Part shown: positions 18,561 to 64,000 of the stretch, piece after piece
How the letters are laid out: each line of letters begins with the position of its first letter
How positions within the stretch are numbered: position 1 is the first letter of the stretch
Assembly (NCBI GenBank): GCA_044892525.1
Contig: CM097885.1
Coordinates: forward strand, 16,308,001 to 16,372,000
Direction of reading: 5' to 3'
Origin: Schmidtea polychroa
Lineage: Eukaryota
Length of the DNA stretch: 64,000 bases
Program-made: the position numbers and the translations under genes
The notes under the pieces: generated by a model
What the model was told of the DNA's origin: nothing
What the model saw: the letters and a program-made list of their open reading frames with translations, nothing else
Database searches by the model: none

Positions 18561-18889
18561 GCAGTAGGCGTAATTGAATGCTTTCAGACGGCCTGTTGAA
18601 TCCTGTGTCCAATTCGGTTCCAGTATTCTAGTAGTGTATCGTCAGTTAGATAAATCCTTCCTGAAAGATAGTTAACGAGTTGATTAAAAATAGTGAACTC
18701 ATGGATTTCAGCCCAGTGCTGTATGAATGATATATCTGAGGATTTAAATTTTTTCACAAGCACAGATCATTACAACCATATATACATATACATCACAGGC
18801 CAAATGGCTTCAATAAATCCACACAAACACATATCATATTATATTATATATTATATATCATACCATTCTCTCCGGCAGCCCCTCATCTG

Positions 18890-27374: not shown

Positions 27375-29069
27375 ATGTTTGCAAGCGTATGGGAATTGAT
27401 GAAGAGGAATAAATTTGAATTTGATAATGAAGTCAGCAGTGAATTGATATGCAGAATTTGCAAGTGTTTAATGATAAAAGCTTGCCATGCTCCTTGCGGT
27501 TGTCGCTTTTGTTCTGATTGCATTGAACATTATTTGGATGGAAAAGATAAATTCTGTCCAGGAGCAGCAAAACATTGTAGAAAGAAAATGATAAATTTTA
27601 TTAAGGATGTTTCGGAAGATCATGCAGCCAATTTAAGGATTTCAGAAGTGATAGTGAGATGCCCAATGCAAAATTGTCAATTCAAAGACGAATTAGAGGT
27701 GATGGAGAGCCACATGAGAACATGCAACAAGCAACCAATAAAATGTCCATTCAATAGAATCGGATGCGAAATGAATGAGGTGGATAAGGATGAAATGAAA
27801 GTCCATCTCATTGAGAACACTGAAGGCCATAGCAAATTATTGATCGATCAGATCAGTAATTTATGCAATGAAATGCAATCAATGAGAGACGAGAATGTGA
27901 CATTGCGTAATGAAATTATCAATATCAATGTAAAATTGTATTTGTAATTAATTTTATTGATATTTGTGATTGTAGGTGAAACTGGGCAATCTTGAAAAGA
28001 AAGAGAAAGAGAACAGAGATGAAATAGAAGAATTGAATGAGGAAATGGTGGCATTGAAGAATGAGAATCGCTCATTGAGAATGGAGATGGAGACAAATAT
28101 TGGATCAATCAATCAAGTTTGATTATTGATTTGATTTATTATTGATTTGTTATTGATGCAAAGCAGGTCAGACAGCAAATTGAGGCGATTGGATCAAAAT
28201 GTCAACAGCAAATTGATGATATGAAAGAGAAAGGCGAGCGGCGGCTGCAACAGGGGAATGAAAAGGTGATTTATTGATTTATTGAAATGTTTGAATTTGA
28301 GGTTCAGTTGCAGCTTGAAATGGCAAAATGCGCCAATGAAATTCGGCAGAATGAAACAAAATATCAACAGCAAATTGATGATATGAAAGAGAAATGCGAG
28401 CAGCGGCTGCAACAGGGGAATGAAAAGGTGATTTATTGATTTATTGAAATGTTTGAATTTGAGATTCAGCTGCAGATTGAAATGGCGAAATGCGCCAATG
28501 AAATTCGGCAGATTGAATCAAAATGTCAACAGCAAATTGATGAGATGAAAGAGAAATGCGAGCAGCGGCTGCAACAGGGGAATGAAAAGGTGATTTATTG
28601 ATTTATTGTAATATTTGAATTTGAGATTCAGTTGCAGATTGAAATGGCGAAATGCGCCAATGAAATACGGCAGATTGAAACAAAATTAGCAAATGAAAAA
28701 TATATAAATTATGGATTTTTTGAATGGCAAATCGATAAATTTTCGCAACAAAAGAGATATGAAAATATTTACAGCGAGGCATTTTATTCCGGGCCAATCG
28801 GTTACAAAATGTGCTTGTGGGTGAGGATTGGGGGTGATTGGGTTGATGTTGGTTTCTGTTTGATGCGTGGGGCAAATGATGAGCAATTGGATTGGCCGTT
28901 CAATCAATCCGTAACAATCGATGTGATCGATCCAGCAAATGGCAGCATTTATATGAGCAAGTCAAGGAAATATTCAGATTGGCCTGATGCAGCCAGATGG
29001 GGGAAACCTTCAGATGATAGAAATATATACCAAATCTCGTATACCAAACTTCTCGTATACCAAATATAA
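27375..29069 (+). CDS. Host TRAF-like gene (RING, TRAF Zn finger, coiled-coil exons, MATH domain truncated at the C-terminus)
   Basis: RING CRICKC...CGCRFCSDC...CP; VRCP...C...H...C finger; MATH FEWQI...YSEAFYSGPIGYKMCL...LMRG..DEQLDWPF; short GT-AG introns. Confidence 0.92.
28190..28690 (+). repeat. Tandem 162-nt exon+intron units in the TRAF coiled coil
   Basis: Donor GT at 28266, 28428 and 28590; 42-nt intron plus 120-nt exon per unit. Confidence 0.9.
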
Positions 29070-32200: not shown

Positions 32201-33480
32201 TGGTTTATTTCTATATATTAAAACGTTAATGGCTAAGTTCAGTTCACGGTTTTTGCGTTCGAATTTAGGTATGTTACTTAATCTCATCGGGCAATCACTA
32301 ATGGGGTCAAAATTAATTTCATCCAAATAATTTTGGTAAGCACTAACTCGATGCATATTTCTGCGTATAACATCACGCTTTAAGAGGGCTAGAACACTAT
32401 ATATAAAACACATATCATCATCTGTGTTCTGGATATTGACTATTGCGTGTTTAGACTTTAACGCTGTCGGGGTGGGAATATAACTATGTCCAGCTAACCT
32501 ATTCATAATCTTATACTTATTTATTATGAAGTCAATTTCTTTTATTTTAACAACCCGCCATCCGCTACCTAAATATGTGAATTTTTCTATCTTATTATTT
32601 AATTTAGTGACGCCATTGATTAAAAAATTTTCTGAAAAAACTTCGGCGTTATTGGAGAAAAAATTATCTCGGATTTCGCCATCTTTCTCAAATTGTATGA
32701 GAACCGTGAACTGAATTTTAACGGGCCCCATACCGTTCATTTCTGATACTAGTTTTTGAATAATTTTTGGTGTTATTGCTATCTGTACTAAGGCGTCTTT
32801 CTCCACGTCAAACCTTAGATTTTTTCTAGCCCCCTTAAAATCTATTTCTATTTCTGGCTCGTCGTCTATATCGACTGAACCGCCTATTTGATTATTTAGT
32901 ATATTATTTAGGATATTATTTAGGTTATTATCTATTTCATCACCACCATAATTAACTTTAACAATTTTAGATGGAACACAAGACCCCGGACTAACAGCAG
33001 GCCGTTTTTTATTTTTAATTAGATTATTATTCACATTATTATTTACATTATTATTTACATTTTGTGCTGTGCTATTCACATTTTTATATACAGTTTTATT
33101 TACAGTTTTGATATGTTCTGTATTATTTACATTTTGTGCTGTGCTATTCACATTTTTATTTTTATAAACAGTTTTATTTACAGTTTTGATATGTTTTGTA
33201 TTATTTACATTTTGTGCGTGCTATTCACATTTTTATTTTTATAAACAGTTTTATTTACAGTTTTGATATGTTCAGAATTATTTAACTTATTAAAAAGTTT
33301 CTTTTTATTTAAAGTAAACTGATTTAGATGTTTACTATGTATATTATAAAAATCCTTATATTTTATAGGTTGGGAAGTCTGGCATAGTGGACATAAATAA
33401 TATTTGAGTCCATAGAATTTATGCCCATAGTATTTTTTCATGTTTTTGTGACATACTTTAGTATGCCCAGTCGAAGACAT
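29279..33480 (-). pseudogene. pPolB of element B with one frameshift (~33218) and one in-frame TAG (31976-31978)
   Basis: Three ORF-track pieces join. A 1-nt deletion in one copy of an N-terminal repeat (AGCACGCAC vs AGCACAGCAC) links the Zn-finger ORF; IRVK*CPHCL reads on into YADFE, YIDINNLYG, KLFNNSLYGK and GDTDS. Confidence 0.93.
29330..29529. repeat. Perfect 99-nt tandem duplication in the pPolB tail
   Basis: EETDAGQVFTHEEIGPLFGGESPSFDDQDSPRI twice, identical at the nucleotide level. Confidence 0.95.
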
Positions 33481-33692
33481 GCAATACCGAGGATATAATC
33501 GGCCTATTAATAAATTTATTTAATAATTATCTAAATATTGTTGTAATATAGAATGTTTAATATCTTTATTAACAATTGTTAGTAGTTATTCAGTTTTTTA
33601 TTAGACAATAATTATAAAACTGAATAACTATTAACAATTATTAATAAAGGAAATATTATTAGCAGTTAGATCAAAGACATGGAAATTTAAAG

Positions 33693-33774
<82 letters not shown>

Positions 33775-33778
33775 TATT

Positions 33779-33835
<57 letters not shown>

Positions 33836-33888
33836 AGAGAGATGTAGTTGCATGCTGACTGCAAACTACTGGTAGAAATTATGGGTCA

Positions 33889-34038
<150 letters not shown>

Positions 34039-34392
34039 TCTAAACTTAAATTATAACTTTCTCAAGAATAGTTCAAAATTTTCTTCTTTTTAAATTTTCA
34101 TCATCATTTCATATAAATTTTCATCATCTGTTCATATAAATTTTCTTCATATAATTTTTCAAATAAAATTGTTCAGGATTTTTCAAATAAATTTTCATCA
34201 TCTGTTCATATAAATTTTCTTCATCTGTTCATATAAATTATCTTCATATAAATTTTCTTCATATAAATTTAAATCGTCAATTACAAATTTACAGCATTTT
34301 TTAAAATAATTTAAAGAAAGTTATAATTTAAGTTTATAAATAATTTATAAATAATTATGATTAATAAAAAATATTATTCATGAAAAAAAAAA

Positions 34393-35096
34393 CTAACATT
34401 TAGACTCTGAATCAGAGTCTGTTTCGTCCTCAGTGAGGATATTTCCAAAGATTTTATGGGCATCTCCAATAAAAGTTGAGGCATAATCTGCTTCCTCCCC
34501 AATATCTGTGGGGGCATCAATTAACATTGTTTCAATAGGTGCAGCATAAATTGGAGCATCATCCTCAGAGAGGGCATACCGAATAGGGGCATCATTCAAA
34601 ACATTTGAAGCTTCTAAATCATTTTTAAAAATTACATATAAAAATAATAAAAACTTACGAGTATTTTCTATCATCGCATGTTCGATGAAAAACTCATTGT
34701 CGATGTGGTTAGGAATCATTTGACTATGTCCTAAAAAAGGTTTTTAATTTAATACAATAATAATAATAAATTACTTGATAAATCATCATCATCCTCACTA
34801 ATGACTATTGTATCGTCATTGTCGCTAATAATTACTATTGTATCGTCATTGTCGCTAATAATTATAGGATCTTCATCATCGCTCACCATTATAACGTCTA
34901 AATAATAATAATAATATTAATAAATAAAAATAAAATTACCATATGTACAATTTAAATTAAATCCATCTTCATTTTCAGTAACTTCGTACCACAAATCATC
35001 TATAAAATAAATATATAAAAATAAATAAAATAATAATATTTTACCATTGCTGCCAGCCATCATACATCTCAGAATATTATTTTCTTGTCCTTCCAT
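34393..35096 (-). CDS. Spliced acidic protein with four tandem SUMO-interacting-motif-like repeats (at least 5 exons)
   Basis: ATG 35096; phase-1 GT-AG introns 35000-35044, 34898-34939, 34731-34774 and 34614-34658 give one frame containing VIMVSDDED, IIISDNDD, IVIISDNDD and IVISEDDDD. Confidence 0.8.
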
Positions 35097-35525
35097 TTTG
35101 TAAAAATTTTAAATTAATTGTGACGAATTTGGAAATTGCAAATGTTTATAAAGAGATTTAAATTTTCCTGTCCCAGCCAATAAGATTTCGGTATACACAC
35201 ATAGAAACTTAAATATTTTACTCTGTTAGCCAATCACATCGCATCTACATGTGCCTTGTTAATCACACTGTTTCCATGTGACTGTCTTTATTAGTCAGTT
35301 CTTTGTTAACATGCACTGTGCATGCACGGAGCATGTGATGGCTTTATGATAAGTTAATTAAAAATAATTAATAAGTTAATAATAACAATAAAATTAAAGT
35401 CTTTCTTATTAAATAATAATAAAAGTCATTCTTATTAAATAATAATAAAAGTCTTTCTTATTAAATAATAATAATAAAAGTCTTTCTTATTAAATAACAA
35501 CAACAAAGCATACACTAAACATTTA

Positions 35526-35940
35526 TTAAACATGAAACTTTTTGTACAACAACCACGCCAAACAGTGTTGACCACATGTTTGGGTCAAGGGATTTTGAAA
35601 CATAGTTTTATTATACACAATAGGTTTCCCCATTGTTTGTAGTTTTGATATCAACAAAGCCGGGTAATAAAAACCCATAGGATCGAACACGAATATATTA
35701 CCAGGTTTCATATATATAGCTATCCAATGTTCTCCACCAAGATGAGACGATTGAGTATTGACGATTATTGCTTGATTATTGCTCAAATATGGAATTTTAT
35801 CAAGAGGAAAAACTCCAACAAATTCATTTCCCAATATCTGTTTTCCAATTCTCAGTACCTGAACAGAACTACTTAAATAAATCCAGAGTATAAAAAAAAA
35901 CAACTTACTCCATGACAACTTTTTGTGTTTCAATATACAT
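35526..35940 (-). CDS. Adenain-like protease of element B, two exons
   Basis: GEHWIA, FVFDPMG, QNPLTQTCGQHC. ATG at 35940 abuts the capsid stop; the GTAAGT...TAG intron 35869-35908 joins MD|SVQVLR. Confidence 0.88.
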
Positions 35941-37154
35941 TTATACCAACACAGCTCTATTTGCAGTAATTTGAACTTCATTTTCAAATACTCCATATAT
36001 TATAACATGTACTGGTTCAGTAATAGCTTTTGCAAACTTTATATCCAGTCGTAAATTTCCATTTTGAGGTAATTGACTTTGATTTAAATCAAAATCAGGG
36101 GCTAAAACAAATGTAAAAAATGGGTATTTGCTTTTAAAATCCTCTAGAGTTATTCCGCAATTCAAATTTTTATCTAAATAACCCAGATTTCTAACAATAC
36201 TCTGCATATATGTCGCACAGTCATTCTCGAAATCTTGAATATATGTTTCTCTATAATCAGTATTTTTCGACAAAGTCAATGATGTAACACCAAAGTTTTT
36301 GAAAATTGAGCTGGACGCAGTATATGATCCATTATATTGTGCTTCACTTTGAAATGTTATCAGAATAAAATTAGGCATTCTTCTGTCACCAAATATTTGT
36401 TCTTTATAGAATGATGAAGCACCTTTAGCAATAGCAAATTGTACAATTTCCTTTGTTTTTAATGGATAAATTGCATGTTTTGAATTAAGACCCAATTGAT
36501 GACCTGCTAATACTGAGGGGTCTACTCGAACTCTTCTGACCAATAATTTTGCATCAACTAATTGACATATTGGTGTAGTAGTTGCACTAGTAAGAGATAA
36601 TGCAGAATCAGACCTTTTCAGTCTAATATGTACATTAACTCCCGGTAGTAAATATTTCGGTTGATCCATAAAATCAAGTTGTAATGATGAGCACATGGTG
36701 AAAACCTTTGAGCCTTTTACTACTTTTTTCTTTCATCATCACTGCCATAGCCCATAGGAGTAAGACATGTATTTTTAGTATCGGAATTGTAATTTAAAAT
36801 AGTTTCTATTAATGCCTTGTGAATGAATGTATTATTTCCACCCTCAATCTTGATATTATTAAATCCCAACACTGCATCTTTAAAAAGAGTATGAAACAGG
36901 AAATTGTTCGGTATTACATCTGCATTGGCATCCAAAACTTTTCTATCTTTATCTACAACCTTAATCTGAACAGTCAATAAAGTATCGTTCAAATCTAAAT
37001 ATTCGGTTTGTGAACCATTAATATAAAACTCGATATCATTTCTACTATCGGTAATTGAATTCATAGGAAAAACTTCGTCAAATGCCCCAAATTCTATTAC
37101 AGCCTGGGGCGACGGTCTATCAAATATACATAATTCAGATTTACCACAAATCAT
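35941..37154 (-). pseudogene. Major capsid protein (double jelly roll) with a 1-nt frameshift at run 36724-36729
   Basis: CGKSELCIFDRP, IEFYI...YLDLNDTLL, LQLDFMDQPKYLLPGV, GNLRLDIKFAKA. One extra A gives RKKVVKGSKVFTMC and joins the two ORFs. Confidence 0.9.
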
Positions 37155-37513
37155 TTTGCAAATATAGTTCCATGTCCTTTCATTCTTTTGTTTATACGTG
37201 ATATTCCATGTCTTTTACGTTTTGGAGCTGGAGCTGGAGCTGGAGGTTTTTGAAACATACCTGCAACCCCTGGTAAAACTTTCCCTAATTCAGCTAAAGT
37301 ATTTGTTTTTAGAGATGGTAATATTTTCTGTTCATTCATAATAACATCTTTTGCAGTCTTCATACCAAAACTACCAATACGTTTAAGAATAGGCAGGGCA
37401 AATCTACCAATTGTTCTCAACCATCCTGATCCGTACTGTTTACCAATAAATTATGGTAATTCACCGCCAGATTGGCTACCACTATACATACTAATAATAT
37501 CAGAATTAGCCAT
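37151..37513 (-). pseudogene. Conserved Polinton core protein with amphipathic helix; in-frame TAA at 37451-37453
   Basis: MANSDIISMYSGSQSGGELP*FIGKQYGSGWLRTIGRFALPILK; QxGG and QxGxG motifs; basic tail. Confidence 0.75.
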
Positions 37514-38549
37514 TTATTTTACGAAAATGTAATGTCAAATGAGTTTTTGAATCTTTTGGAAAGTTTATAAGTTTTCCACTATCATCACGAATATTTATTT
37601 CTATATTGTTTATACATGAACTTGCTATTGGTAAATACATGGGATTATCGATATTTATATTGACAACTTCATCATGTTCATATTTTCCAATCCATACCGA
37701 TTTCAAAAGAGGAACACTGGAATCACCAACAATTATGGGTTCGATAATGTTAGTATATATGAACATTTGTTGATGATGTTCTAGTATTCTTGGTTTGCGT
37801 ATACCAGTCGATTTTTCTCGATATTTTTGCCTATCTAATCCAAGTGAATTTGCCAAATTTTTATCAAATGTAACTTCGCAAATATCCTCATTCAAACTGA
37901 AGGTAAACATCAAATCTTTCACAATTTCCAAATTTTTAAATATGTGTGAACAATTGAACTTTAAATATTTAAGTAAATCATCAAGTTTATCAAAATATAA
38001 TTCATCAGCAAAGGTAAATGATTCTTCAACTTCATCATTATACGACACAGATATTTTGATTTCTTCTTTCATTACACTGTTTGCTTCAAATAGATTAAAA
38101 CGTAATAAATACTCGGTCTCCGTAACAATATTTTTCAACTTATTGCAACCCATTCGTTTGGCATCTTCAATAGTTTCGAATGTTATTGTAAACGGTTTAA
38201 AATCACAACTGATATTTAATCCATCCTTGTAAAACATATAGCAATGCGAATCTAATATTTGATTCGGAATATGATATGTTTTATCATAATTACTAATAAC
38301 AAAGATACCGCTACATGTTTTCACAATATTCCTTCTGAAATCAATCTTACAATGACTATAAAATGGGAATGTGTTGTACACAAATGTAAAATCTTGCAGT
38401 GCAACTTCCCAGTCACCATTTAAAGAAATCGGATTCTGGAGATTGACCATAAATTTACTGGCTTGATTGTCTGGATGAATTAATGGGCAAGTATTGCTCG
38501 GTAAAATAGTATAAAAATTCACTTTACTAGGTCTTTTGCTGATATCCAT
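37506..38549 (-). CDS. Minor capsid protein (penton) of element B
   Basis: FYTILPSN...NQASKFMVNL...GDWEVAL; MFIYTNIIEPIIVGD..VPLL; IEINIRDDSGKLINF...LTLHFR. Confidence 0.9.
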   Translation of the reverse strand: MDISKRPSKVNFYTILPSNTCPLIHPDNQASKFMVNLQNPISLNGDWEVALQDFTFVYNTFPFYSHCKIDFRRNIVKTCSGIFVISNYDKTYHIPNQILDSHCYMFYKDGLNISCDFKPFTITFETIEDAKRMGCNKLKNIVTETEYLLRFNLFEANSVMKEEIKISVSYNDEVEESFTFADELYFDKLDDLLKYLKFNCSHIFKNLEIVKDLMFTFSLNEDICEVTFDKNLANSLGLDRQKYREKSTGIRKPRILEHHQQMFIYTNIIEPIIVGDSSVPLLKSVWIGKYEHDEVVNINIDNPMYLPIASSCINNIEINIRDDSGKLINFPKDSKTHLTLHFRKING

Positions 38550-39151
38550 GACGGGTTTTGATAACCATGCCATTTGACATAGTATTGTTTATCCTTACCG
38601 ACCTTTTTCGTTTTCAATATCTTTTGAATTCTAAATACTTTTGGGGGAGGAATGACTTGTAATTCCTGCTCATAAAATTTCCCTTGTACAATATTATTAT
38701 CATTATCTTTGATGACATACATTACAGGATTCTGTTTAGTATTTATTTTTGAAATTACAAAGACTTCATCACTCCAATTTGTATCAAAATTTTTAATAAA
38801 TGGTGATGCACTAATTTTACTAATTCTAACATGGTCACCGACTTTATATTTAGGTTTTGCAATTTTTACAGATTTCTTAGAAGTCAATGATGTTTTTGAT
38901 GTAATATCAACAGGTCTCAATCCATTCAGTCCTCGATGTGACGAATGATTATAACTTGTTATTATTTTCGGTAAAGCATTTACCCATTTTTTATTACCTT
39001 GATGCACGAACAATTTCTTTAATCTATCTCTCAATGTTCGATTAAATCTTTCAACATGGGCAGCTTTGTATTGAGAATGTACCGAGTAGTGATTTATTTT
39101 CAGTTTATCGAGGATTTGCTTAACTTTGCTATTGTAGAATTCTTTACTTAA

Positions 39152-39246
<95 letters not shown>

Positions 39247-39634
39247 CTAAATCTGTTTGCAAGTTATTAGGATGTCCATCTTTAAATAAAATATTAATTG
39301 CCTTGGACATTTCTTCTGCAGATTTTGCCTTGACTGGTATTGCTCGTGCAAACCTGCTGTATACATTAATACATGTTAAAATATATTTATTTCCATTGTT
39401 AATTTTCGAATAAGGTATCATCTCCATCAAATCCATTTGCCATAAATCGTCAATACCAAATGTTTTATATGCTCTTGTTGGAAATCTTTTCCGCATTGGT
39501 TTGTTCAAACTGTACGCAAGCTGATCTGATAACCACTTCTGGGTTTCTTTTTTCGAATTCTGAACTCTTTTCTTTAATTTTGCCACTCCACCGAAACCGG
39601 TTTCGTCTTCTGGGTTCGTCCAAATCTTCTCCAT
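38519..39634 (-). CDS. rve integrase with C-terminal chromodomain, interrupted by an (ATT)n intron-like insert
   Basis: WQMDL, LQTDLG[insert]KEF, HVERFNRTLR; chromodomain FRIQKILKTK...YYVKWHGY...SWI; likely start MEKIW at 39634. Confidence 0.92.
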
Positions 39635-39692
39635 TACAACAAGAAGATTTAAAATTAAATTTAATGTCGGGCAATGAAGGATTAGCACCCAT
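39465..39692 (-). CDS. Small overprinted ORF with an N-myristoylation motif
   Basis: MGANPS fits MGxxxS; also contains SSCC. The ATG lies 3 nt after the upstream stop and the ORF overlaps the integrase 5' end in another frame. Confidence 0.45.
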   Translation of the reverse strand: MGANPSLPDIKFNFKSSCCNGEDLDEPRRRNRFRWSGKIKEKSSEFEKRNPEVVIRSACVQFEQTNAEKISNKSI

Positions 39693-39695
39693 TGT

Positions 39696-40223
39696 TTATG
39701 ACTGTGTAACTCCACCTAATAATGATAATGCCAGAGGTATCAAGGCACCAATAAATCCACCTTGTTGTTTATATATAATTTTCCTCATTTGCTTACGATT
39801 TTTATTATTTACTAAGGATAACAATGGTTTCCTATGTTTGCTCAATAAATGCTTTTTTCATTTACTGATTTTAATTTTGCCTTTGACTACTTTAAGTATA
39901 ATATTGAGTAAATCATCGACAACGAAATTTGGGAATGATTGCAATATATTCATTCTTTTCATACTCGGGGCCTTTAACAATGCATTAAAAAATGGAAAAC
40001 TGCGATGATTTTTAACTACTTTTTTACTGGTTTTACTGGTTTTACGGGTTTTACGTTTAGGTTTAGGATTTTTCGAAATAAGATTCATTGCAGAGAAATT
40101 TTCAGTTACAAGTTTTTTAGATGGTGTATAACTAGTTGTTGGTGGAACTTTTGGAACTTTAATACTCTTTCTAATACTTTTTCTTAATTTCCTAATATTT
40201 TTCACCCTTGCTTTTAGAAACAT
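39696..40223 (-). pseudogene. Basic Polinton core protein ending in QQGG plus hydrophobic tail; in-frame TGA at 39858-39860
   Basis: Reading through the stop gives KKHLLSKHRKPLLSLVKNKNRKQMRKIIYKQQGGFIGALIPLALSLLGGVTQS*. Confidence 0.75.
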
Positions 40224-40241
40224 TATTATTCATAGAGGTTT

Positions 40242-40868
40242 TCAACTTTGTTTATAAACCATGGCACCTTTTGGGTTGAAAATATCGGTTTTTACTCGTA
40301 AATCATCGGGACATTGTTGCGTGAAATCAAGAAATATATATCCATGAGGTATTTTTGTAGCATCTTGAAATGCACTGATAAGAAAATTACGATTGTTAGG
40401 GTATGCTTGACGTGCAAGAAAATCAATCACTGTTGCATCTCTAGGATTCTTGAAAATAACTAAATATTGTACATTTAAATTACGTGTTCGATGTGCCCCG
40501 CCTTGATGAAATAGATTTTGTGTTATGAAAATAACTGTTACACCGACATGTCTGCTGATCTTTGTAAATAAATTATTAAAATCTTTTTCTTTATTAGCTT
40601 CTTGATACAGATCATCGATAATAATGACATCACCTTTCTTTAATCGGCTGGACCAGTTTTTATCGAATCCCTTTACTATTTTCATGTTTTTTAATTTACA
40701 GAAACTTGATTGAGTTAATCCATGTTCTTCATCAGCACCCCTATGCCAATAAATCCTGTTGAATTTTTATTTGAATAAATTTGATTTTAGTAATTTACAA
40801 ACAAATAATGTTTTTCCACTACCACTCGGACCAACGATTTGGTATACTGCATCATTTCTTAATTCCAT
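40242..40868 (-). pseudogene. A32-like packaging ATPase of element B; in-frame TAA at 40767-40769
   Basis: GPSGSGKT, IIIDDL, SRH, ITQN and FKNPRD lie in one frame across the stop. Confidence 0.92.
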
Positions 40869-40971
40869 TTCAAAAATTTTATAAATATATGTGTATTTGT
40901 TTATATTCAATGATTTAATGAACTCGTGCTCAATTTGTATATAAAGACTAATTTTCATAAATGATTTAATA

Positions 40972-41409
40972 ATGTTAGCAAATATAAATTATCGAGGAAA
41001 TTTTGATGTATCGAATATGAGGTTCCCACCAGGGAAACCCCAGCAAATTATCGATAGAAGCGGGAAATATCCGATAATATTTTTCAAGACTGGTAAATGT
41101 AGAATCATGGGATGTAAGAAACCTTTGGATATTAATAAATTACAATATCGAATAAATAATATTATAATCCAATCAATTACCGTTACTATGGATATGGGAC
41201 ATAGTATCAATTTATATAACATGTCGAAAAAATGTGATTGTATGTTTGAACCGGAATTGTTTCCGGCACTAAGACTATTAAAATATAACCCTATATGTGT
41301 CAACGTGTTTGCTAGTGGAAAGGTTGTCATGCTGGGGTTGAGAAATTTGGAGTATAGAGAATTTGTTGACAATGTTCGAAATGAGATAATTTCATTGGTC
41401 GATTTCTAA
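40972..41409 (+). CDS. Divergent TATA-binding protein (TBP)-like protein
   Basis: Two TBP repeats: IIFFKTGKCRIMGCK (cf. LIFSSGKMVCTGAK) and IQSITVTMD...FEPELFPAL...VNVFASGKVVMLG (cf. YEPELFPGL...LIFVSGKVVLTG). Confidence 0.88.
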   Translation: MLANINYRGNFDVSNMRFPPGKPQQIIDRSGKYPIIFFKTGKCRIMGCKKPLDINKLQYRINNIIIQSITVTMDMGHSINLYNMSKKCDCMFEPELFPALRLLKYNPICVNVFASGKVVMLGLRNLEYREFVDNVRNEIISLVDF

Positions 41410-41483
41410 TTGGTTAATTTCTAATTGGTTATTGATTGATTTAAACAAACGGTTTTTTGTTTAGGATTCATTTATTCAACACT

Positions 41484-41850
41484 ATGTACAAATTACCAAG
41501 CTCTGCAAACCTCATGAAAGATATTGACGATTATGGTAAATTTAAAATTTTTATTTTGACATTTTTTAATATTTATTATTTTAGAAAAATATTTAGAAGT
41601 TATGCTCAATAGGATAAAATATTATTATTCTCAAATTGCGGAAATAATCAAGGACAGAGAACCAGAAATCGTTCCAGATTTGATTTTTTATTCAACCCAA
41701 ATTAGAATTATGGAGGTATTCCATCAATTCTTATGGGATATTAAGATCGACAGAACCATGAAGCAAATGGAGCCGGAGTACCAGTGCATCATCGGATGTT
41801 CATGTTGTGCCGATCGATATCGGCGATATGTCGAATGGGAGTTAGTATAA
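41484..41850 (+). CDS. Two-exon hypothetical protein with a CxxxCxCC motif
   Basis: ATG 41484; GT-AG intron 41536-41584 splices in frame to ORF 41602-41850. Confidence 0.7.
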
Positions 41851-42169
41851 ACTCTGAGAAGGTTTCACTACTCCCGGATTGTTGATTTGGGTTATGAATA
41901 AATGTATTTCGTGTTTGAATTGTGTTTTTTTTTATATTTAAAATAATAGTAATAATATAAATAGTAATAATAATAATAATAGTAATAATAATAATAATAG
42001 TAATAATAATAATAATAGTAATAATAATAATAATAGTAATAATAATAGAAATAGTAATAATAATAATAGTAATAATAATAGTAATAATAATAGAAATAGT
42101 AATAATAATAATAGTAATAATAATAAAACATTAATAATAAAACATTAATAGAACATAAATGCAGCATTA

Positions 42170-42246
42170 ATGCAAATGACATGCAAATTTAAACAAAGAC
42201 ATGCTATAATCTGATTGGTTGATAGGCATGAGTCAAAGGTATAAAA
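42170..42246 (+). promoter_or_regulatory. Pol II-type promoter: two octamers, CCAAT box, AP-1 site, TATA box
   Basis: ATGCAAAT at 42170 and 42181, ATTGG at 42214, TGAGTCA at 42229, TATAAAA at 42240, ATG at 42281. Confidence 0.65.
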
Positions 42247-42280
42247 ACCCTGTAACATTTAAATTTATTCATTATTCACT

Positions 42281-42691
42281 ATGACCAAGAAAATTTCATG
42301 CACCGAAAAACCTAAAGAAATGGTACAACCAGTTCAAATGTTCCACAACTACAAAATGTATTTTTTGAAAGAAGAAATCAATATGAAATTAGTTGCACCA
42401 GTCAAGCTGATTCCAACTAAATTTGAATTCTTATCCGGCACGCTTTCAATGATTGATGTCAAAACTATTGATGATGTTTTTAAACGGATAGATTCGAATC
42501 TATCGTGTAATCAACATGCGTGGTTCAACAATAGATATGCAAGATTTTATGATGCTTTTGATGAAATCAGTTTCAAAGAAAATGGAAATTGGTATATAAC
42601 AATTGCAATCCAGGGATATAAAGTTGATAATAATGATGTATATTCTCCTATTTGGAAAATTATGTCTGCTAGACTTTCACAAATATTTTAA
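42281..42691 (+). CDS. Hypothetical beta-rich protein, possibly OB-fold/SSB-like
   Basis: Intact 136-aa ORF with a good promoter and a downstream AATAAA; the fold guess is weak. Confidence 0.6.
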   Translation: MTKKISCTEKPKEMVQPVQMFHNYKMYFLKEEINMKLVAPVKLIPTKFEFLSGTLSMIDVKTIDDVFKRIDSNLSCNQHAWFNNRYARFYDAFDEISFKENGNWYITIAIQGYKVDNNDVYSPIWKIMSARLSQIF

Positions 42692-42817
42692 TGTTATATT
42701 TAATAAATGTATTAGTCAGATTTGTTTTTCTCTTTATTAATTGCAACATAAATGCGAATGACATGCAAATTTAACAAAGAAAATCTATAAACAAACTTAT
42801 AATATAGTTTTAAAGTG

Positions 42818-43179
42818 ATGAAAATGACTGCAGAAAAAGGTTAACATGATTAATTAATTACCGAATTATTTATTATTTAGAATTTTTAATCAACTTTTTG
42901 TTGGAAAAGTTAGCAGAAATATCTGGTGTGAAAATTGAGGACATATTATCTATTACAAATGCCTTAAATATCGGCTGGATAGTTGAGAGTCAAGATACAG
43001 GATTTGATGATGAGGAAGAAACTCAAGAAACCGATACTCAAGAAATTGATGAGGAAATCTATGAACCTATAGAGGAACCTATAGAGGAACCTAAAGATAA
43101 TATTACGAATGATTGTATTGATCATGTCGTTGAAAATATAATGAAATGTGGAGATGACGACTGCGAATGTGTTAATTAA
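42818..43179 (+). CDS. Two-exon acidic protein with a Cys-rich tail
   Basis: ATG 42818; GT-AG intron 42840-42880 in frame with ORF 42898-43179; AATAAA at the stop. Confidence 0.65.
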
Positions 43180-43248
43180 TAAATCTTAGTGTTTGTAAAT
43201 TTATTTAAAATTTTATTTAAAAATCAAACAAAATAACTATATTAATTT

Positions 43249-43764
43249 TTATTTAAAAAATCTGGATAAAACATACAAAATAGCAACACCAGTTGCAAGT
43301 TTTATATAGTTTTTAAATTTTCTTTTCTGATCATCTATTTCCTTCGCATTTCTGGCGAGTTGATTTAGTACTCCCCATCCGCCATTGGCTTCAATCCATG
43401 GTTGAAACTTTGACTTGATTATCTAGAAAATAAATATTAATAAAATATAGATTATAAAAGTATTACTTCTTGAGACCACTGATAATAGTGCTCGGAGTCC
43501 CATAGACTTTTTTCAATTATTATCTTCATATAAGCGAACCCTACTAGTATTCGGGTCCACTTCATCTCCTCGTCGCATAGGCAGTTAAAAATCCTATTAA
43601 AATAGAATTTTTTTGGTTTCGAGACAATAGGAATTGATCACATCCTCAAAATCAATGTGATTACTTTCTATAATCTTTTCAGTCCGATCGACCAGAAAAC
43701 TGAGGCTTTCCATAATATTCCTGTTGACGAGTTCTCTTAAAAGATTTTCCATAAAATGAGACAT
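43249..43764 (-). pseudogene. Bcl-2 family protein (two exons; 1-nt frameshift at run 43608-43614)
   Basis: BH1-like LCDEEMKWTRILVGFAY, BH2 FQPWIEANGGW, tail anchor YIKLATGVAILYVLSRFFK*; phase-0 intron 43423-43466. Absent from the ORF track. Confidence 0.85.
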
Positions 43765-43869
43765 TTTTACAATAATTTAAAATATGATGTTTTATTTATA
43801 CTAATACCGTATGATTTTGATTGGTTGATAAACTATAAATGTAAAAGAAAGGTTTTGATTTGATACACC

Positions 43870-44370
43870 ATGAAAACTATATTCATATTGCTAATTATTA
43901 TAACGAGTGTGTGCTCACACAATACAACAATAACAGTGGAGTCCTTTAATAAATCAATATGTGTTTGTCCGAATACAGCCAAGTTGATGAATATTTTATA
44001 TATTCTCGACAAACCAAAATGGTCAAAGCATCCAGGAAAAAGAATATCTCAAAGATTGGAGAATTTAGAAAACAGTTATGAACTATCATTTGAATATATA
44101 CAAAATATAAAAATTAAATTGATTGATCATATTGAGGTTTTCAATAACTCTATTGTTGAAAATAAAAAGAATATGAAAATTATTGATAAGAAGCATGATT
44201 ATTTATTAAAAAAGATTGAATTATTATTAAGAGAAATTCAAACAATCAAAGGATCAATTGAATATCTGAAAATCAATTCAACGTTATCAATTTCAAACAA
44301 TATTGCTGCGAATAGTAGTACATCAATATTTAGTTTACCTTTGTTAATTTTACATTATTTTATTGTTTAA
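43870..44370 (+). CDS. Putative secreted or GPI-anchored coiled-coil glycoprotein
   Basis: Signal-like MKTIFILLIIITSVCS, several NxS/T sites, heptad region, Ser/Asn-rich spacer and a terminal hydrophobic tail. Confidence 0.6.
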   Translation: MKTIFILLIIITSVCSHNTTITVESFNKSICVCPNTAKLMNILYILDKPKWSKHPGKRISQRLENLENSYELSFEYIQNIKIKLIDHIEVFNNSIVENKKNMKIIDKKHDYLLKKIELLLREIQTIKGSIEYLKINSTLSISNNIAANSSTSIFSLPLLILHYFIV

Positions 44371-44507
44371 ATAAATGTATGTTTTGTTGATTTGTGAGTT
44401 GTTGAGCGTGACCAGTACCCTTGTGAGCATTACCCATAGAGGGAGAAAATATTTTGTCGGATAAACTCGGGGCAGTACCCTTGCGTACAATACCCAACAA
44501 TAATAAT

Positions 44508-44651
<144 letters not shown>

Positions 44652-44744
44652 TTAAGTCTTACCTGATTGGGTGAATGATAAATCACCCGCAAATTTCTTC
44701 ATAAAATTTGCTATAAATTTGCTATAAATTAGTGTCTGACTAAA

Positions 44745-45334
44745 AAATTAATAACTTTTATACCACTAGTGATAAAAATTATTTCTATGGCTCAAAAGAT
44801 TTGTCTTCGTCTGGTCTTCAAAATGAACTATAAATTGTTAAAATATTTTGAGATTTAGACTAAGTTTTTGGCTCACGAAAAGTAGGACTCCGCTAGCACA
44901 GTTAATAATATTTTTGAAAAATAATAATAATTTACCTTAAAATGACTAAAATGACTCTGACCAAAACCTTAATAACTTTTTTATTATTAGTGATAAAAAT
45001 TATTTCTATGGCTCAAAGGATAGATCTCCGTCTGGTCTTCAAAATGAACTATGAAATTTTAAAAGATTTTAAGTTTCAGACTAAGTTTTGGGGTCACGAA
45101 AAGTAGGACTCCGCTAGCACAGTTAATAATATTTTTGAAAAATAATAATAATTTTTGATGAGTCATCGGATGAGTCATTGTCTTTGTTCTAGACGAGTGA
45201 TGAGTCATCGGATGACTCATTGTCTTTGTTCTAAAGTTGACCTTGAAAAAAAAATTTTTAAAAATTTTTTCCGGCCGGGGGGGGGGGTACTGTGCTAGCG
45301 GAGTCCTGTTTTAGCGGTGCCCAAACCACCTACT
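44745..45334. repeat. Right terminal region of Polinton B: 221-nt-period duplication, AP-1 repeats and tip
   Basis: Two copies containing AGTAGGACTCCGCTAGCACAGT (44881, 45102), an inverted copy at 45289-45307, and terminal CCTACT. Confidence 0.85.
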
Positions 45335-51640: not shown

Positions 51641-51781
51641 CCAATATTAATATTTTCATTCCATAATTCATAACATAAATCGATTGTTTCTTACAACGCG
51701 ACATTAGTAAATAAACTACATACATCAAACGAAACCATATACTCATTAACATTATTTTTATTAAACAATGTTAATGAGTAT

Positions 51782-52170
51782 ATGGTTTCGTTTGGTGTAT
51801 GTAGTTTATTTACAAATGTTCCATTGAAAAAACGATCGATTTATGTTGTGAATTATGGAATGAAAATATTAATGCGCATAATAAGTGCGATGGAAGTGCA
51901 TTTAAGGAAGCTTTTAGAGTTTGCAACTTCCGAAGTTAATTTTCTTTTTAATAATGAATGGTATGAACAAATTGATGGAGTGGCTATGGGTTCACCCTTA
52001 GCACTAACAATGACGTCAATATTTTTGGCATGTTTAGAAAAGAAAATTGCTTCTTTTCAATATGAAAAACTAATTGTGTATAAAAGGTATGTTGATGATA
52101 TTTTTTTGATATTTAAAAATAAGGAACATGTGAAACCATTTTTGCATTATATGAATAGATTGCATAAGAA
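51782..52170 (+). mobile_element. Penelope-like element RT fragment
   Basis: VSF.V.SLFTNVP, FLFNNEWYEQIDGVAMGSPL, YKRYVDDIF. Confidence 0.88.
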
Positions 52171-53126
52171 AATTTTTATTATCTTTAATTTAGGCAAGCA
52201 GCACCTAAAATAAAATAATAAAAACATTAACCTTAAGTTAATAAAATTTTAAAATAGTTACATAGAAAGGTATTGTGTTTAAATAGCTCATTTTTATGAT
52301 TTAGTCTTGAAGTAAATTCGGATTTTTAATTATTTTATAATTTATCAAAGTTTTATTTTAGTTTCCTAGATTTTTATTTTAGTTCTGAGAGATAAAACTA
52401 CCATCTGTCAATTTTAGTTATAATTTAAAGAATTTTTGTATTTTTTAAAAATGAAACATGTAAAAGTCACTGGCTATTCTGAAATAGTTATAAATTATTT
52501 CGGTCAAATAACTTTAACTGAATATGATTTCAGGTGGGATGTATTTATATTTTCAATTTAATTGTTGGAACCGGGGCGCTAACATTACCGAAAGCCTTTC
52601 AAGATGCAGGTTGGGTGTTGAGTGGAATCGTTTTATGTATCTTATGTTTAATAAGGTAACATTCACCAAACTATTTTTGATAAAGCATTATGTTCACGAA
52701 TTTAAGTTATATTACCGCAACTTATGTAATTGAAGCGATGAGCATTTCAAATGGACTGCAAAAACTGTCCAAATTAAAATACGTAATTTATTTAATTAAT
52801 TAATTTATTATCTTTATTGAAAGAAAATTTTTTATTTATAAATTATATGGAAAATTTTATACAATTTTAATTCTCAAATTGTTTCTTCTTATTATTATTA
52901 ATTAATTGTTAATTAAATTAATTAATTTATTAAAATCTGAAATTTTTTTATTTTATAATTTCATGTTTTGGATTTATAAATAATTATTTTTTGAATTTTA
53001 TTGTATCCAAAATTTGTATTTGTTATTAATTTATCCATTTGATTGGTCATGGGTGTATAAATCATTTTAAATAAATATATTTATTTTTAATATTATAAAT
53101 TTTTTCAATTTTCAATTGACATTTTA

Positions 53127-54654
53127 TTTATTAAAAAGCTTGACTATGAATCTGTAAATATATCGGTACTGCCGTTTTCAGTGATTTTGATCATTATTTG
53201 TTAATTTTGAAACTATAGGGAAAAAATTAATTTATTTTGTATTTTATATTAAATTTATTAACTAATTATAATTTTAATTTTTTAATTACATTTTAAATAA
53301 TATTATTTTTTATTTTATTTTTTATTTAAATTTTAACAATTTTTTTAAAATTTAAATAACAAAATAATATAAATTAAATTTCAATGACAATTATTAAAAA
53401 AATTTTAATTTAAATTTCAAAAAAATATAAAAATGATATAATAAATATCTAAAATCTTAATATCATTTAAAATGTAATTAAAAAATTTAAATTATAAAAT
53501 TTTTTTAGATATTTCATATATTATTTTTATTTTATTGTGTAATTTATGTTTGAACATTTTTTTTAATTTCAATTATAAAATAAATTAAAAAATAAAAATT
53601 TAAATTATAAAATAAATTAAAAAGTAATGTAAGAAATATATAAATAAATTTAATTTCAAAGACATTTATTTAAAAAAATTTTAAAAAATTTAAATAACAA
53701 AATAAAATAAAATAATATAAGAAATATCTAATATCTTAATATCATCTAAAATGTTATTAAACAATTAAAATTATAAATATTTTTTTATATATTTCTTATA
53801 TTATTTTTTATTTTATTGTGTAATTTAAATTTTAAAATAAATTAATTAAATTTCAGACATTTATTTAAAAAAATAAAAAAAAATTTTATTTTATTTTTTA
53901 ATTAAATTTTAAATGATATTTAGATTTTAGATATTTCCTATATTATTTTATTTTATTTTGTAATATAAATTTTTAAAAGTTATAAAAATTTTTTAAAATT
54001 TAAATTACAAAATAATATAAGAAATATCTAATTAAATTACAAAATAAAAAATATATATAAGAAAGAACTAAAATCTTAATATCATTTAAAATGTAATTAA
54101 AAAATTAAAATTATAAAATTATTTTTAGATATTTCTTACAATATTATTTCTTATATTATTATTTAAATTTTAACAATTTTTTTTAATTTAAAATATAAAA
54201 TAAATTAAAAAATAATATAAGACATATCTAATTAAATTAAATTTCAAGGACATTTATTTAAAAAAAAAGTTTTTAAAATTTAAATTAAAAAATAAAATAA
54301 AAAATACTATAAGAAATATCTAAAATTTTAATATCATTTAAAATGTAATTAAAGTTATAAAAATTTTTTTTAAATATTTCTCATTATTTTTTATTTTATA
54401 ATTGAAATTTTAACAATTTTTTTTAAATTTAAATTACAAAATAATATAAATATTTAATTAAAATATGTAATTTAAAAATTAAAATTATAATTAATCAGTA
54501 AATATAAAATACAAAATAAATTAAGTTTTTCCCTATAGTTCCAAATTTATAGATAATGATCAAATTCATATGAAAAAGGCGGTGCTGAAAATTCGTGAAT
54601 ATCAAAAAAACATTGATATATTTACTGATTCATAGTCAAGCCTTTCTAATAAAT
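53127..54654. repeat. Foldback-like AT-rich element with ~160-nt imperfect inverted arms
   Basis: GCTTGACTATGAATC...AACTATAGGGAAAAA...TTTATTTTGTATTTTATATT on the left is mirrored at ~54480-54654; internal AT-rich units occur in both orientations. Confidence 0.7.
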
Positions 54655-55001
54655 ACAATATTACTTTTAAAAACTTGTTTTATATAGAATTTATTTTAAT
54701 TTATTTTTAAAATATTATTTGATATAAAATAATAGTTTTTTGAATTTGCGGTGAAATATCGATTTGTCTGTAATTTTCGAAATTGCAATCGATTGTCACT
54801 AATTTTGATCAAACAGAAAAACATATTATATGCCTATACATCACATATACACAAATATAGTCAAGAAATTGAAATTTACAAGGCTTATCGTATGGTCGAA
54901 AATGTTTTCATTTGTATTAAATATATTATTCGCAGCAAAAGGCTTAAATTATCATTTATCATTAAATTATCACTTTATACTATATAGTCAAGATATGCAA
55001 G

Positions 55002-59499: not shown

Positions 59500-60277
59500 A
59501 GAAATGCAGGATCTTTATATTCATTTACAAGAAAATGCAAAAAGATATCAGAAACAATCTAGAAAACATTAGCTCGTTTCTAAATATGTTTGAAACAGAA
59601 GAAGAGTATGAAGTTCGTTTATTAAGACGATATTTCAATCCAGAGATTTTGTTCGAGATTTAATCGATGGAAGATTTTGGAAAAGAATCAAATACATTGG
59701 AATGGTATTTGCGGAAATTAATCGAGATGTTTATAATAAAGGAATCCAAAGAAATGAATATTAAATATCTTCTAAGTACACCACACGTAGCAGGAAAAAT
59801 GTACTGAAGATTTCAATAAAAAAGTGAAACGAGCTACAAAATATTTTTTGATTTTTAGAGAAGATCTTCGAAATGATATACGAGGAGTACATTAAAAATA
59901 CTGAAACCCATAAACCATAGAATAGACCGTGAAAGATGATGACACAAAGGCATAATAGACGCATTTCGCATGTTTTTGAGTATCGAATAATGATACGACG
60001 AGTGAGTAAAGGTAAAATGGATCATTAGGGCAGACAGAAATGCAGCAAATGGAGATTCCAAGAATCAAAGAGGAGATAAGAAAATTAAAGAAGGGATAAA
60101 AATCTCAGAAAAGAACAATCAGTACCTAGAATAACAAATGGGTCAAAAAATAAGATTTGGACATCTTTAAGGATTGCCTGGATGAATTTAACACTTAGTT
60201 GTTTTAGATGCAATATGAATGGTCACATTATAAAAGATTGTTCTAAAAGAAAAAGGAGATTGAACGAATATGGAATG
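59500..60277 (+). mobile_element. Degenerate LTR-retrotransposon gag fragment (left boundary uncertain)
   Basis: CCHC knuckle CFRCNMNGHIIKDC at ~60199-60241. Confidence 0.55.
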
Positions 60278-60283
60278 GTTAGA

Positions 60284-60451
60284 AGTAGGGTGACATGTGG
60301 ACTCGGGAATGAATACATATTACGTAATCGATGATATCACAAATGAAATTACGCCATATCCCGCCACTGGGGGTGATATGACGTCATTTCCTTTATGGTG
60401 TCACTGGTTACGTAATATGTCTTTGTTCCCAGGTCCACATGTTACCCTACT
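60284..60451. mobile_element. 168-bp hairpin MITE with Polinton-type ends and a 6-bp TSD
   Basis: AGTAGGG...CCCTACT flanked by GTTAGA at 60278-60283 and 60452-60457; the whole element is an imperfect palindrome. Confidence 0.85.
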
Positions 60452-63311
60452 GTTAGACATATATAAGAAATTTCAGTGGATTCATTATTATTATATTTTT
60501 TAATTTAGCCATCATCGACTTTAAATCAACCGTTTAATAAAGTTAGCCATTATATCACATTTTAAACTTACCATTTTAACCTTTAAATTAATCTCATCTT
60601 ACCTTTTCCATCACGAACCGTATAATCTACATTACCACTAAGTTTTATCAATCCCCTTTACCCAATAAACGCACCTTGTCAACCATATAATGAGTCTACA
60701 TCGAACCCACACTTGAATATTTAGCCTTAAATCATCATTGGTACCTTGAAACCCACCCTACGATTAAAAAATGACTAAATCGATCTAATCTTTTAACTAT
60801 CGTTTTCATCTTTAAAGCCACTCTTTCATAGTATAAAAATGACTAAATCAACCTAGTTGTTAAAGTTTTACCCTTCAATCACCATTTTACACTTAATCAA
60901 TCCTTTCTATCATAAAATGACTCTAAATTAACCTATCCCATCACAGACCCTTTCAAATTTAATTTACACTTAAATTTTGACTCTTCGACCATAATTTTCA
61001 ATCCTAACGGACACATCCGACACTCAAATATCTCTAAATCGAGCTTTCCCTTAAAATTTGACCATTCAATTGACTTGCATTTAAATTATCTTAAAACGAT
61101 ATTTTTACTATAAACTGTCCTCGGTGAACTTAAAATGACCTTAAATCGACATTAAACGCTGGCTCTAAATGATCTCTGATGGCATTGTTAAGTCATTCAG
61201 TAGTTTTATATGGGATGGCAAACTCACTACATAATATTTCTGCCTTTTTAAAAAAACGTTAATGATAGCAATAGGCCAATACCCATTCAATGACATGTTA
61301 ATTTTGTTAGTCGAATTCGTGGACTCCCTTAAAATCATTCAGGAATCATAAATTTGTCGAGGACTGACGTCGAAAGACTTGTTTTGTCAAAATCCCTCAT
61401 TATAACGTCATATGACCATATTGAGTGCTTCCTAGGTGAATATTGATAAAATTATTTACTTGAAAATATTTTATGATGAAACCAAAATTTTATAACAAAA
61501 TAAATTATTAATCAAATAATACCAATTTTTATTAAAAACTTTAATTTCTAATTATTTATTTTGAAATCGATTATTAACGGATATCACCAAATAGTATTGA
61601 TTACCATTGATTAAATCATTTAAATTTGATTATATTAAAATAGCCATTTTTCTTTTATTGTGTAAACCCTTTTGAGAAAAACAGCATGGTACTTCCGTGT
61701 TATCTTACCCGCAAAAATTAAATTATAAAATACAATTAAAATAACAATATAAAAAATGAGAGAATACATTATTGATGACGTTATTGAACATTATTGAACA
61801 TGAATTTATTAAGGCTATCTGTGATTTGTGTGATTATGTGAGTTTATGTGGCGCAAACGTGTTCTAAGCAACAGTGCCGATGTGTTCGACACTATTCTCA
61901 ACGACATTGTGGTTTTCTGGCCACCTGGATGACCATTTACAAACTCTTTACAAACATTTGCTGAGTTTGTAACTGTGATTTAGAAAATAAATATAATAAT
62001 TATATGTGTTCTTTTTTAATTTAATTTTTGGGGGTAAGATAACACGGAAGTATCAATAGCATTTACTATACCATTCAAAAAAGAAATCATTGAACACATG
62101 GACCAAGAAACTCTTGTTACAAGACTAGAAAATTCTTGAGTGAACGAGGTAAATGTGATTATAGTGAATCTAAGTTCCAACAATGGTTTTTGAATAGAAA
62201 AAATATTCAAAATAGTCCTCATTGGTGATGAAAGTAGTTGGCGGTTGGAGAAAGACATCACTTGGTTCTCTTGAGGAGATTCTAGTGAATGAAATAATTG
62301 AGATGAGAATAAGAACATTTATATTTGATCGTGCTCTTTCCTTGGCTGATTTTGGGTTTTATGGCAAGAAATTACCTTTCGCTTAGAAGAAGTACGAATT
62401 TCATAACCCTATCTCATGACCAGCTGATATTTTGAGCCATCAACTACATGCGTTATCTTCAATAAGTGCTCTTTAGTATCAATTAATCTAAGACGTTGCT
62501 GGTGAATGAAATCGCCATTTACTTTGAAAACAATTGAACTTAGACGGTTGGTTTAAGGGGCCCCAAGCATGTCGTCATGAAGTTGATAAGATTTTCTTCT
62601 ATATGGATAACTGTGGCACTACTAGTTTGGTAAAATTGTAGAAAGGCAAAATTACACAAAGGCAAAGATTCACAAAATATTATAAAAAGTGGAAATGTTT
62701 TTAATCTGACACAAAGTAAGGCCTGGGTTAATGAAGAACTGGTGATCTTATGAATTGATTTGATGTTAGTCCCCGTAGATGTATCTTTTGGGATTCATGT
62801 CGAGCCCATATTGCTGAAAGGGTAAAAGAACATTGCCGAAGGAGTGAAAAAATATATAACATTGGTTATAATATCTTGTAGACTGACGCTGTATCTACAA
62901 GCAGGAGATATTGGATTTAATAAAAAATTTGGATATAAAATTTGTCATCAATCAATATTTGTTAGAACTCTGAGAGTATTTAGTTCACAAGAGCAGGTCA
63001 TCCCAAACAGCCAAACCATCTAACTGGACGCCTGGAATAGTCTTTCTGTTGAACATATACTCAATTCAATTATTTCGGCAATGTTTTCGACTAATTTTGA
63101 AGACTGGCATATTTAATGTGGCAATATTTCGTTTCAACTTTCTTAGTTTAAATCATGAACGGTTAATCAAGAAAGTGATACAGTCGAACCCCATATTCTA
63201 GATCTGGCCGATGAATAAAACATTTTCGTCTATTATTTTTTTGAACACAATAAATAGTATGACCAATAATTAATTTTTAATGGTCATAATATTTAATAAT
63301 ATAGTATAAAG

Positions 63312-63524: not shown

Positions 63525-64000
63525 GTATAAAGTGATGATTTCTTGGTAGCAGCATTTATTATTTAAAACAATAAAGTGATAATTTAAGTCTTTTTCATTA
63601 AATACATTATACGCAGCAAAAGGCTTAAATTATCACTTTATTGTTTTATTTAATAATATAATTCATACTATTGTTGAGGATACCTAAATAACAACTTATA
63701 AAGAAATAAATAAAATTACCTGGGGGAAGATCGCCATGACAAACGGGACGATCTAGAGAAACTCAGAAAAGAAAACGGAAGTGAAAAGAAATTAAAAATG
63801 AGAAAGAGAAAGGAAATAAAAGTTATCAAACAGGAAAATAAAAATCAAGGTCAGTACTAATTAATTAGTACAAAAAGGAAAAGGAATTTTGAAATTGGGG
63901 GAAAAGGAAAACAACAATATCATTATCTCGACAGCTTGCCAGTGATAATAGAATTGATGGGAGAAGGCGGTCAAACAAAAAAGGGAAAAGGGAAAACTAC

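Follow-up and report, generated by a model that had tools for sequence, protein, structure and literature searches.

The palindrome and its insertion site

The stretch of Schmidtea polychroa DNA that we analysed (64,000 nucleotides, hereafter the window) contains near its right end a short, non-coding element of 168 bp with TIRs and a TSD. Read directly, the sequence runs from GTTAGA (60278 to 60283) through the element (60284 to 60451, AGTAGGG...CCCTACT) to a second, exact GTTAGA (60452 to 60457), both hexamers on the plus strand. Among the repeat lengths of 2 to 12 tried on the element, an exact flanking direct repeat was found at length 6 only. The element matched its own reverse complement in 134 of 169 columns, and its DNA fold was a single hairpin with a loop of 1-3 nt (-48.2 kcal/mol, z -10.4), a stability equalled by 0 of 200 shuffles. 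The palindrome with a perfect 6-bp TSD described in an earlier note on this DNA is therefore real, and the motifs listed there are present too: TTACGTAA twice (60320 and 60408) and TGACGTCA once (60379).

The element consists of TIR sequence throughout and encodes neither pPolB nor integrase. Its left arm (60284 to 60366, plus strand) corresponds to the outer tip of a Polinton family TIR (~79 nt plus a C-run), with 80-86% identity to family tips and 11 mismatches in 76 nt relative to the nearest natural copy. The right arm (60368 to 60451, minus strand) is a second outer tip of the same TIR (80-87% identity; 10 mismatches in 76 nt), and the two meet in a junction at 60360 to 60374, whose centre of symmetry is base 60367.

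Host sequence to the left (59951 to 60283, plus strand) is an old dispersed repeat, 70-90% identical to its other copies (38 matches, with 29 of 29 candidates scored). Beyond the right end of the element the repeat picks up again and continues for about 28 bases (60452 to 60479, plus strand; 24 of 28 identical to the paralogue L083), after which the match stops. Six distinct paralogous loci of the host repeat reach the site, and five run straight into sequence like the right flank with one hexamer at the spot equivalent to the left TSD copy (GTTAGA itself in L083, variant forms at the other four); the sixth, L082, lacks this continuation. Since insert-free copies of the host repeat have the hexamer once, the 168 bp plus 6 bp constitute an insertion, and the search for empty sites proposed in the earlier note thus had a positive outcome.

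The Polinton family behind the arms

A genome search with the 168-bp element returned 71 matches, nearly all to a single arm (~79 nt, 77-87% identity; 40 of 570 candidates scored). An 18-mer tip pattern had 447 exact matches genome-wide, compared with 0 for its reversed control. Pairing of tips among 100 of these 447 matches yielded at least six long pairs of 11.3-15.5 kb, five of six with an exact 6-bp TSD. In all five TSD-flanked copies of 11.9-15.5 kb, we matched an integrase (rve), pPolB, an A32-like ATPase and a protease, many of the ORFs being split. The unassigned ORFs of the long copies, which include products of 360 aa and 326-345 aa, had no Pfam, PDB-sequence or tblastn match to capsid proteins.

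Over 17 tip-bounded copies, the 6-bp TSD was exact in 12, had one mismatch in two, two mismatches in one and five mismatches in two, and flanks paired across copies as a control matched in 2 of 272 cases. Two of the 12 exact repeats are ATAATA within AAT runs and count as weak. The 17 copies leave aside L024 (flanks as in L023), L128 (nested in another TIR, with a decayed right tip), L002/L131 (flanked by element rather than host DNA), the non-family matches L148-L150, L071 and L072, and all outer-inner and inner-inner pairs.

Two papers, in the text available, list TIRs and 6-bp TSDs among Polinton features (PMC8097293; PMC3014272). Because the long copies that share the tip have integrase, pPolB and 6-bp TSDs, the arms of the 168-bp element are tips of a Polinton TIR. 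The Polinton origin and Polinton-type TSD put forward in the earlier note thus hold, the arms being 80-87% identical to the tips that bound the coding 11.9-15.5-kb copies, and its suggested comparison of the arms with TIRs of autonomous Polintons found the matching TIRs (447 exact tip matches, five coding TSD-flanked copies). By extension, a Polinton integrase would have made the GTTAGA duplication. In the parts of the Polinton/Maverick literature available (PMC8097293, PMC10748475, PMC3014272), these elements resemble ours in AG...CT-type tips, TIRs and 6-bp TSDs, and the parent family also shares pPolB, rve integrase, A32-like ATPase and protease with them; they span 12-25 kb, whereas our element has 168 bp and no genes. 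The tip AGTAGG is not among the three vertebrate end motifs in the available text of PMC8097293, though it is close to (AGT)2.

As an alternative identity we considered a MITE of hAT or another cut-and-paste type, with no relation to Polintons, on the strength of the TAGGG close to the tip, a motif that resembles some hAT ends. No pair scanned at lengths of 2-12 or 4-11 had an 8-bp repeat, and an 8-bp TSD with TAGGG ends fails at the element itself (GTTAGAAG versus CTGTTAGA). Long copies with the same tips encode rve integrase and pPolB, and hAT transposase matches numbered 0 among 48 ORFs. We reject a hAT identity as scarcely credible, and the earlier preference for a 6-bp Polinton signature over the 8 bp of hAT was borne out in the other copies checked, none of which had an 8-bp TSD.

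The window holds a larger Polinton, Polinton B (29279 to 45334), whose integrase shares 91% identity with the one in a family copy. At the DNA level its integrase-protease block is 87-91% identical to the family and its pPolB region ~65%; at the amino acid level it has the integrase (91%), ATPase and protease block in common with the family, with pPolB at 57-68%. The earlier note had pointed out that the first six bases of the 168-bp element equal the tip of Polinton B; this is true of AGTAGG at the candidate right tip at 45334, and past base 6 the tips diverge. Polinton B was rejected as the parent and is a relative only, since its tip is a different one beyond those six bases and its pPolB is less closely related. 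Nor is it the partner: the arms belong with a sister family, and a search of Polinton B for that family's tips found none. Apart from those of the 168-mer, no family tips turned up in the window, and a search for the left end and TSD of Polinton B found neither. If 45334 is the end of Polinton B and its TIR differs, TIR type may track the polymerase rather than the integrase.

Several features accompany these Polintons. An ORF with a TATA-binding-protein domain (PF00352, E 6e-15) adjoins the ATPase gene both in the window (40945 to 41409) and in a second locus (L045, 3532 to 4020). An (ATT)n run, read as poly-isoleucine and possibly an intron or a microsatellite insertion, breaks the integrase ORF at the equal place in both (window 38519 to 39715; L045 1159 to 2307). 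Beside the pPolB of Polinton B lies a TRAF-like gene (27342 to 29069; RING, TRAF zinc finger, MATH) that has three repeats of 162 bp. Weak matches to endonuclease VII (PF02945) occur within pPolB ORFs of the family (L043, L044, L052, L050, L039, L057). Some family tips also sit inside, or directly against, another TIR of their own family, tip-to-tip or in tandem (L107 1264-1519, L118 1262-1560, L119 1433-1600, L128 1440-1925), and the end of L029 is 7 bp from a tip of Polinton-B type.

Relative to the family, the two arms appear to have decayed freely. Over their first 76 positions they show 15 differences (12 transitions, 3 transversions), with eight minority letters on the left arm and seven on the right when compared with 54 of 72 natural family tips (the other 18, which had indels or were strongly decayed, were set aside). 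On the plus strand, a G-U pair would remain at eight of the 12 transitions (p = 0.19), so the compensatory changes that the earlier note proposed to look for were not in excess. Six further minority letters common to both arms occur in 9-18 of the 54 natural copies and for this reason look inherited rather than compensatory. We read the arm differences as the neutral decay pattern of an old insertion, and the remnant is predicted to be inert.

These data also bear on whether the hairpin has been kept by the host as a small-RNA precursor or a CRE/bZIP-like motif cassette. The strong fold (z -10.4) and the presence of TGACGTCA and TTACGTAA, which presumably resemble bZIP sites, would fit such a role. 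In Rfam, no family scored above its gathering threshold; there were five sub-threshold hairpin matches to miRNA hairpin models, the best at 49 bits against a gathering score of 110. However, TIR symmetry explains the fold, both motifs occur family-wide, and neither the pair-keeping transitions nor the shared minority letters show a sign of compensation. Host function is thus very improbable.

One-off, tip-only remnants

The earlier note had regarded the element as a MITE-sized satellite mobilised by Polinton pPolB and integrase, and proposed a genome-wide search for copies with distinct TSDs. A query spanning the 168-bp junction matched only itself (one of one candidate). A junction-spanning pattern matched in 15 places, among which the window and L002 alone share this design. 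Tip-to-tip patterns matched 6 times at 26-105 bp, 37 times at 106-276 bp and 16 times at about 280-450 bp; among the 37, the outer-outer pairs were the window element, L012 and L002 only, and the junction differs in each. Reversed controls for two of these patterns were not clean (31 versus 37 at 106-276 bp, 6 versus 6 at 26-105 bp), and their matches were judged by sequence and flanks rather than by number. Thus the searches run recovered no second copy with the same junction, and they lent no support to the idea of a mobilised satellite family.

Besides the window element (168 bp, exact 6-bp TSD), four host-flanked units composed of two outer tips were identified: L146 (91 bp) and L145 (92 bp), each with an exact 6-bp TSD, L012 (249 bp, TSD 5/6) and L147 (100 bp, no TSD). 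No two of these five units share a junction. The short copies other than the one in the window lie at C1:187625643, C1:5922536 and C1:246193941. Larger deleted family copies of 1090, 1422, 2099 and 4765 bp have exact TSDs and likewise differ in their junctions. The arms of L146 are 98% identical (young) compared with 79% for the 168-bp element (old). The latter is best described as a member of a series of one-off tip-only remnants (91, 92, 168 and 249 bp); the 168-bp copy itself is old, was found once and is probably inert.

A true MITE family, moved repeatedly in trans by Polinton integrase and pPolB and now mostly too decayed or too rare to recognise, would fit the intact ends, the presence of helper elements and a design like that described for Made1, in which two TIRs stand almost without a spacer (PMC1784062, in the part available). 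Moreover, the pattern searches require exact 8-10-mers, so decayed copies may be missed, and in the genome search with the whole element 40 of 570 candidates were scored. Against this stand the junction query that finds itself alone, the design shared by the window and L002 alone of the 15 junction-spanning matches, and the three outer-outer pairs with separate junctions among the 37 tip-to-tip matches of 106-276 bp. Dispersed copies uniform in size and junction define a MITE, and here the junction was found once, in searches that are not exhaustive for decayed copies. We judge a true MITE family improbable.

Internal-deletion derivatives of TIR elements are an already known kind, and non-autonomous Polintons are probably present in Repbase. 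We found no description of a tip-only, MITE-sized Polinton in the largely open-access literature searched. Palindromic elements containing AGTAGGGT also occur outside the family (L071 1462-1701; L150 1501-1551); L150, of 51 bp with a 5-bp direct repeat as delimited, is probably another MITE type.

Junctions, fold-backs and the possible origin of the element

The junctions of the remnants tend to fall on short palindromes. The centre of the 168-bp element (60367) lies at the position where family TIRs bear a CCCGGG palindrome (positions 69-110 in 58 of 99 outer tips), and, judging by its sequence, 60360 to 60374 probably derives through decay from the CCCCGGGG-type palindrome located after the tip in the family. 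L146 is centred on ATCGAT, which is present in 75 of 99 tips, L012 is joined at TTACGTAA, and L002 and L147 are joined at CCCGGG sites. The junction of L145 has a short, locally templated inversion instead of a palindrome. Three of the four short remnants (91, 92, 168 and 249 bp) are thus joined at short palindromes within the TIR. By a rough hand estimate, uniform breakpoints in a 13-kb element would both fall within ~125 bp of the tips about twice per 10,000 events; to meet three or four of them in a set of a few hundred exceeds this, which suggests an end-directed process.

Our favoured explanation, in which we place about as much belief as doubt, is that the 168-bp element is the remnant of a full-size Polinton whose interior was lost in place, by microhomology joining of the ends during aborted gap repair. 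A full-size Polinton would have inserted at the GTTAGA site and then excised; repair of the donor gap would have copied both ends inward and stopped early, and the two ends would have been closed by microhomology at a short palindrome within each TIR. The new strands would be identical in sequence, so annealing between them would be confined to motifs that are self-complementary, and remnant junctions would accordingly lie on TIR palindromes. Abortive gap repair with microhomology joining has been proposed for the birth of MITEs, including Made1 (PMC3814204, in the portion available). Excision of a Polinton leaving a double-strand gap is a step that we borrow by analogy from cut-and-paste transposons. 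The even decay of the arms (eight versus seven minority letters) was counted in favour of collapse in place, and the asymmetry of the L012 and L147 junctions, together with the unlike arms (C-runs) just before the join in L002, favours the joining of two separate ends over fold-back of one strand.

Any palindrome within the TIR necessarily recurs as a direct repeat at the opposite end, and can therefore serve microhomology joining and fold-back alike. The element could instead have arisen as a defective mini-genome of the copy-back (snap-back) type, made extrachromosomally and inserted once by a helper integrase: pPolB would have folded back or switched template at a CCCGGG-type palindrome ~84 nt in, and the resulting molecule of 168 bp would have had two origins. 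Symmetry extends right to the centre in both the window element and L146 (to a 1-nt centre in the former), which snap-back would equally yield, and this symmetry was counted against collapse in place; the templated inversion of L145 fits either process.

A fold-back habit of the family is also apparent. Among 101 outer tips sampled, 39 are followed by an inner tip in inverted orientation at a distance of 142-414 nt, and for 23 of the 39 the outer flank is complementary to the sequence past the inner copy; the sample was enriched for fold-back ends by the search patterns, which tempers its value for copy-back and makes it no genome-wide rate. No inner tip was seen in the five long TSD-flanked copies. 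In the assembly, multi-kb palindromes with arms 99.3-99.7% identical are centred on a family tip (L057 with L143 and L144; L102; L104; L065; L086/L087), with several of the fold-back ends at their centres, and in L057 and L102 each arm contains pPolB. The giant palindrome L143/L057/L144 carries another kind of tip at its outer ends and is flanked by an exact 6-bp TSD; the matches inside it are to pPolB only, with none to integrase. At the centre of that palindrome lies L002, a 179-bp outer-outer tip-to-tip unit that is the closest structural twin of the 168-bp element. Because giant pPolB-only palindromes have exact 6-bp TSDs with no integrase match, integration of defective molecules in trans likely occurs in this genome, and these palindromes too were counted against collapse.

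The fold-backs do not, however, support the suggestion in the earlier note that the 168-mer was born as a cut-out fold-back TIR loop. Family loops pair an outer with a different inner tip, and a 6-bp direct repeat surrounded 0 of the 39 outer-inner units; both arms of the 168-mer are of the outer type.

Snap-back defective genomes are known for AAV (PMC8235507, in the part available); like the 168-bp element they are self-complementary, end-derived and subgenomic forms of a linear replicon, whereas our element is chromosomal, has an integrase-type TSD and is known as an integrated form. Against copy-back, no mini-element recurs, though a tiny replicon should out-replicate its helper, and simple fold-back does not account for the asymmetric joins in L012 and L147. 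We therefore regard a copy-back origin of the 168-bp element as possible but rather doubtful. The broader proposition, that the family sheds tip-to-tip copy-back mini-genomes of 91-249 bp at TIR palindromes, which integrate as such with ~45 bp per end being enough for integration, we consider somewhat unlikely. A single locus cannot separate collapse in place from a copy-back mini-genome.

Collapse in place has its closest parallels among cut-and-paste transposons, as far as the available portions of the sources describe them. Made1, the MITE from Hsmar1 (PMC1784062, PMC3814204), likewise consists of two nearly spacerless TIRs forming a near-perfect palindrome, and is an internal-deletion derivative with microhomology at its junction; its parent is a mariner rather than a Polinton, and it is a family with miRNA-producing members, whereas our element was found once. 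Derivatives of Ac, P, Tc1 and Mutator ascribed to abortive gap repair (PMC3814204) also keep their ends and TSD without the interior, with heterogeneous sizes and microhomology junctions as here; excision with a donor-site gap applies to those transposons and for Polintons would be assumed by analogy. We met no experiments on Polinton excision, replication or integration in the literature examined.

Tip-only remnants with clean 6-bp TSDs would record one of two Polinton steps: either excision followed by abortive repair of the resulting gap, as in cut-and-paste transposons, or the uptake by Polinton integrase of molecules down to 91 bp. Either would bear on the movement of virus-like elements, and the mini-elements offer ready-made minimal substrates. 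If copy-back were true, they would amount to a natural deletion scan and to fossil evidence that a virus-like transposon makes defective-interfering DNA.

Inverted tip copies are also found elsewhere in the window. The right end of Polinton A has a perfect 24-nt inverted copy of a tip 246 bp inside (11684 to 11929), and this 246-bp end unit recurs in the 8 kb to the left of the window (L056, 4786 to 5031); inner inverted tip copies were seen in three tip families here. Further self-palindromic stretches lie at 51646 to 51873, 33558 to 33658, 63556 to 63656 and 53121 to 54659, and a line-type retrotransposon occupies 12678 to 18641.
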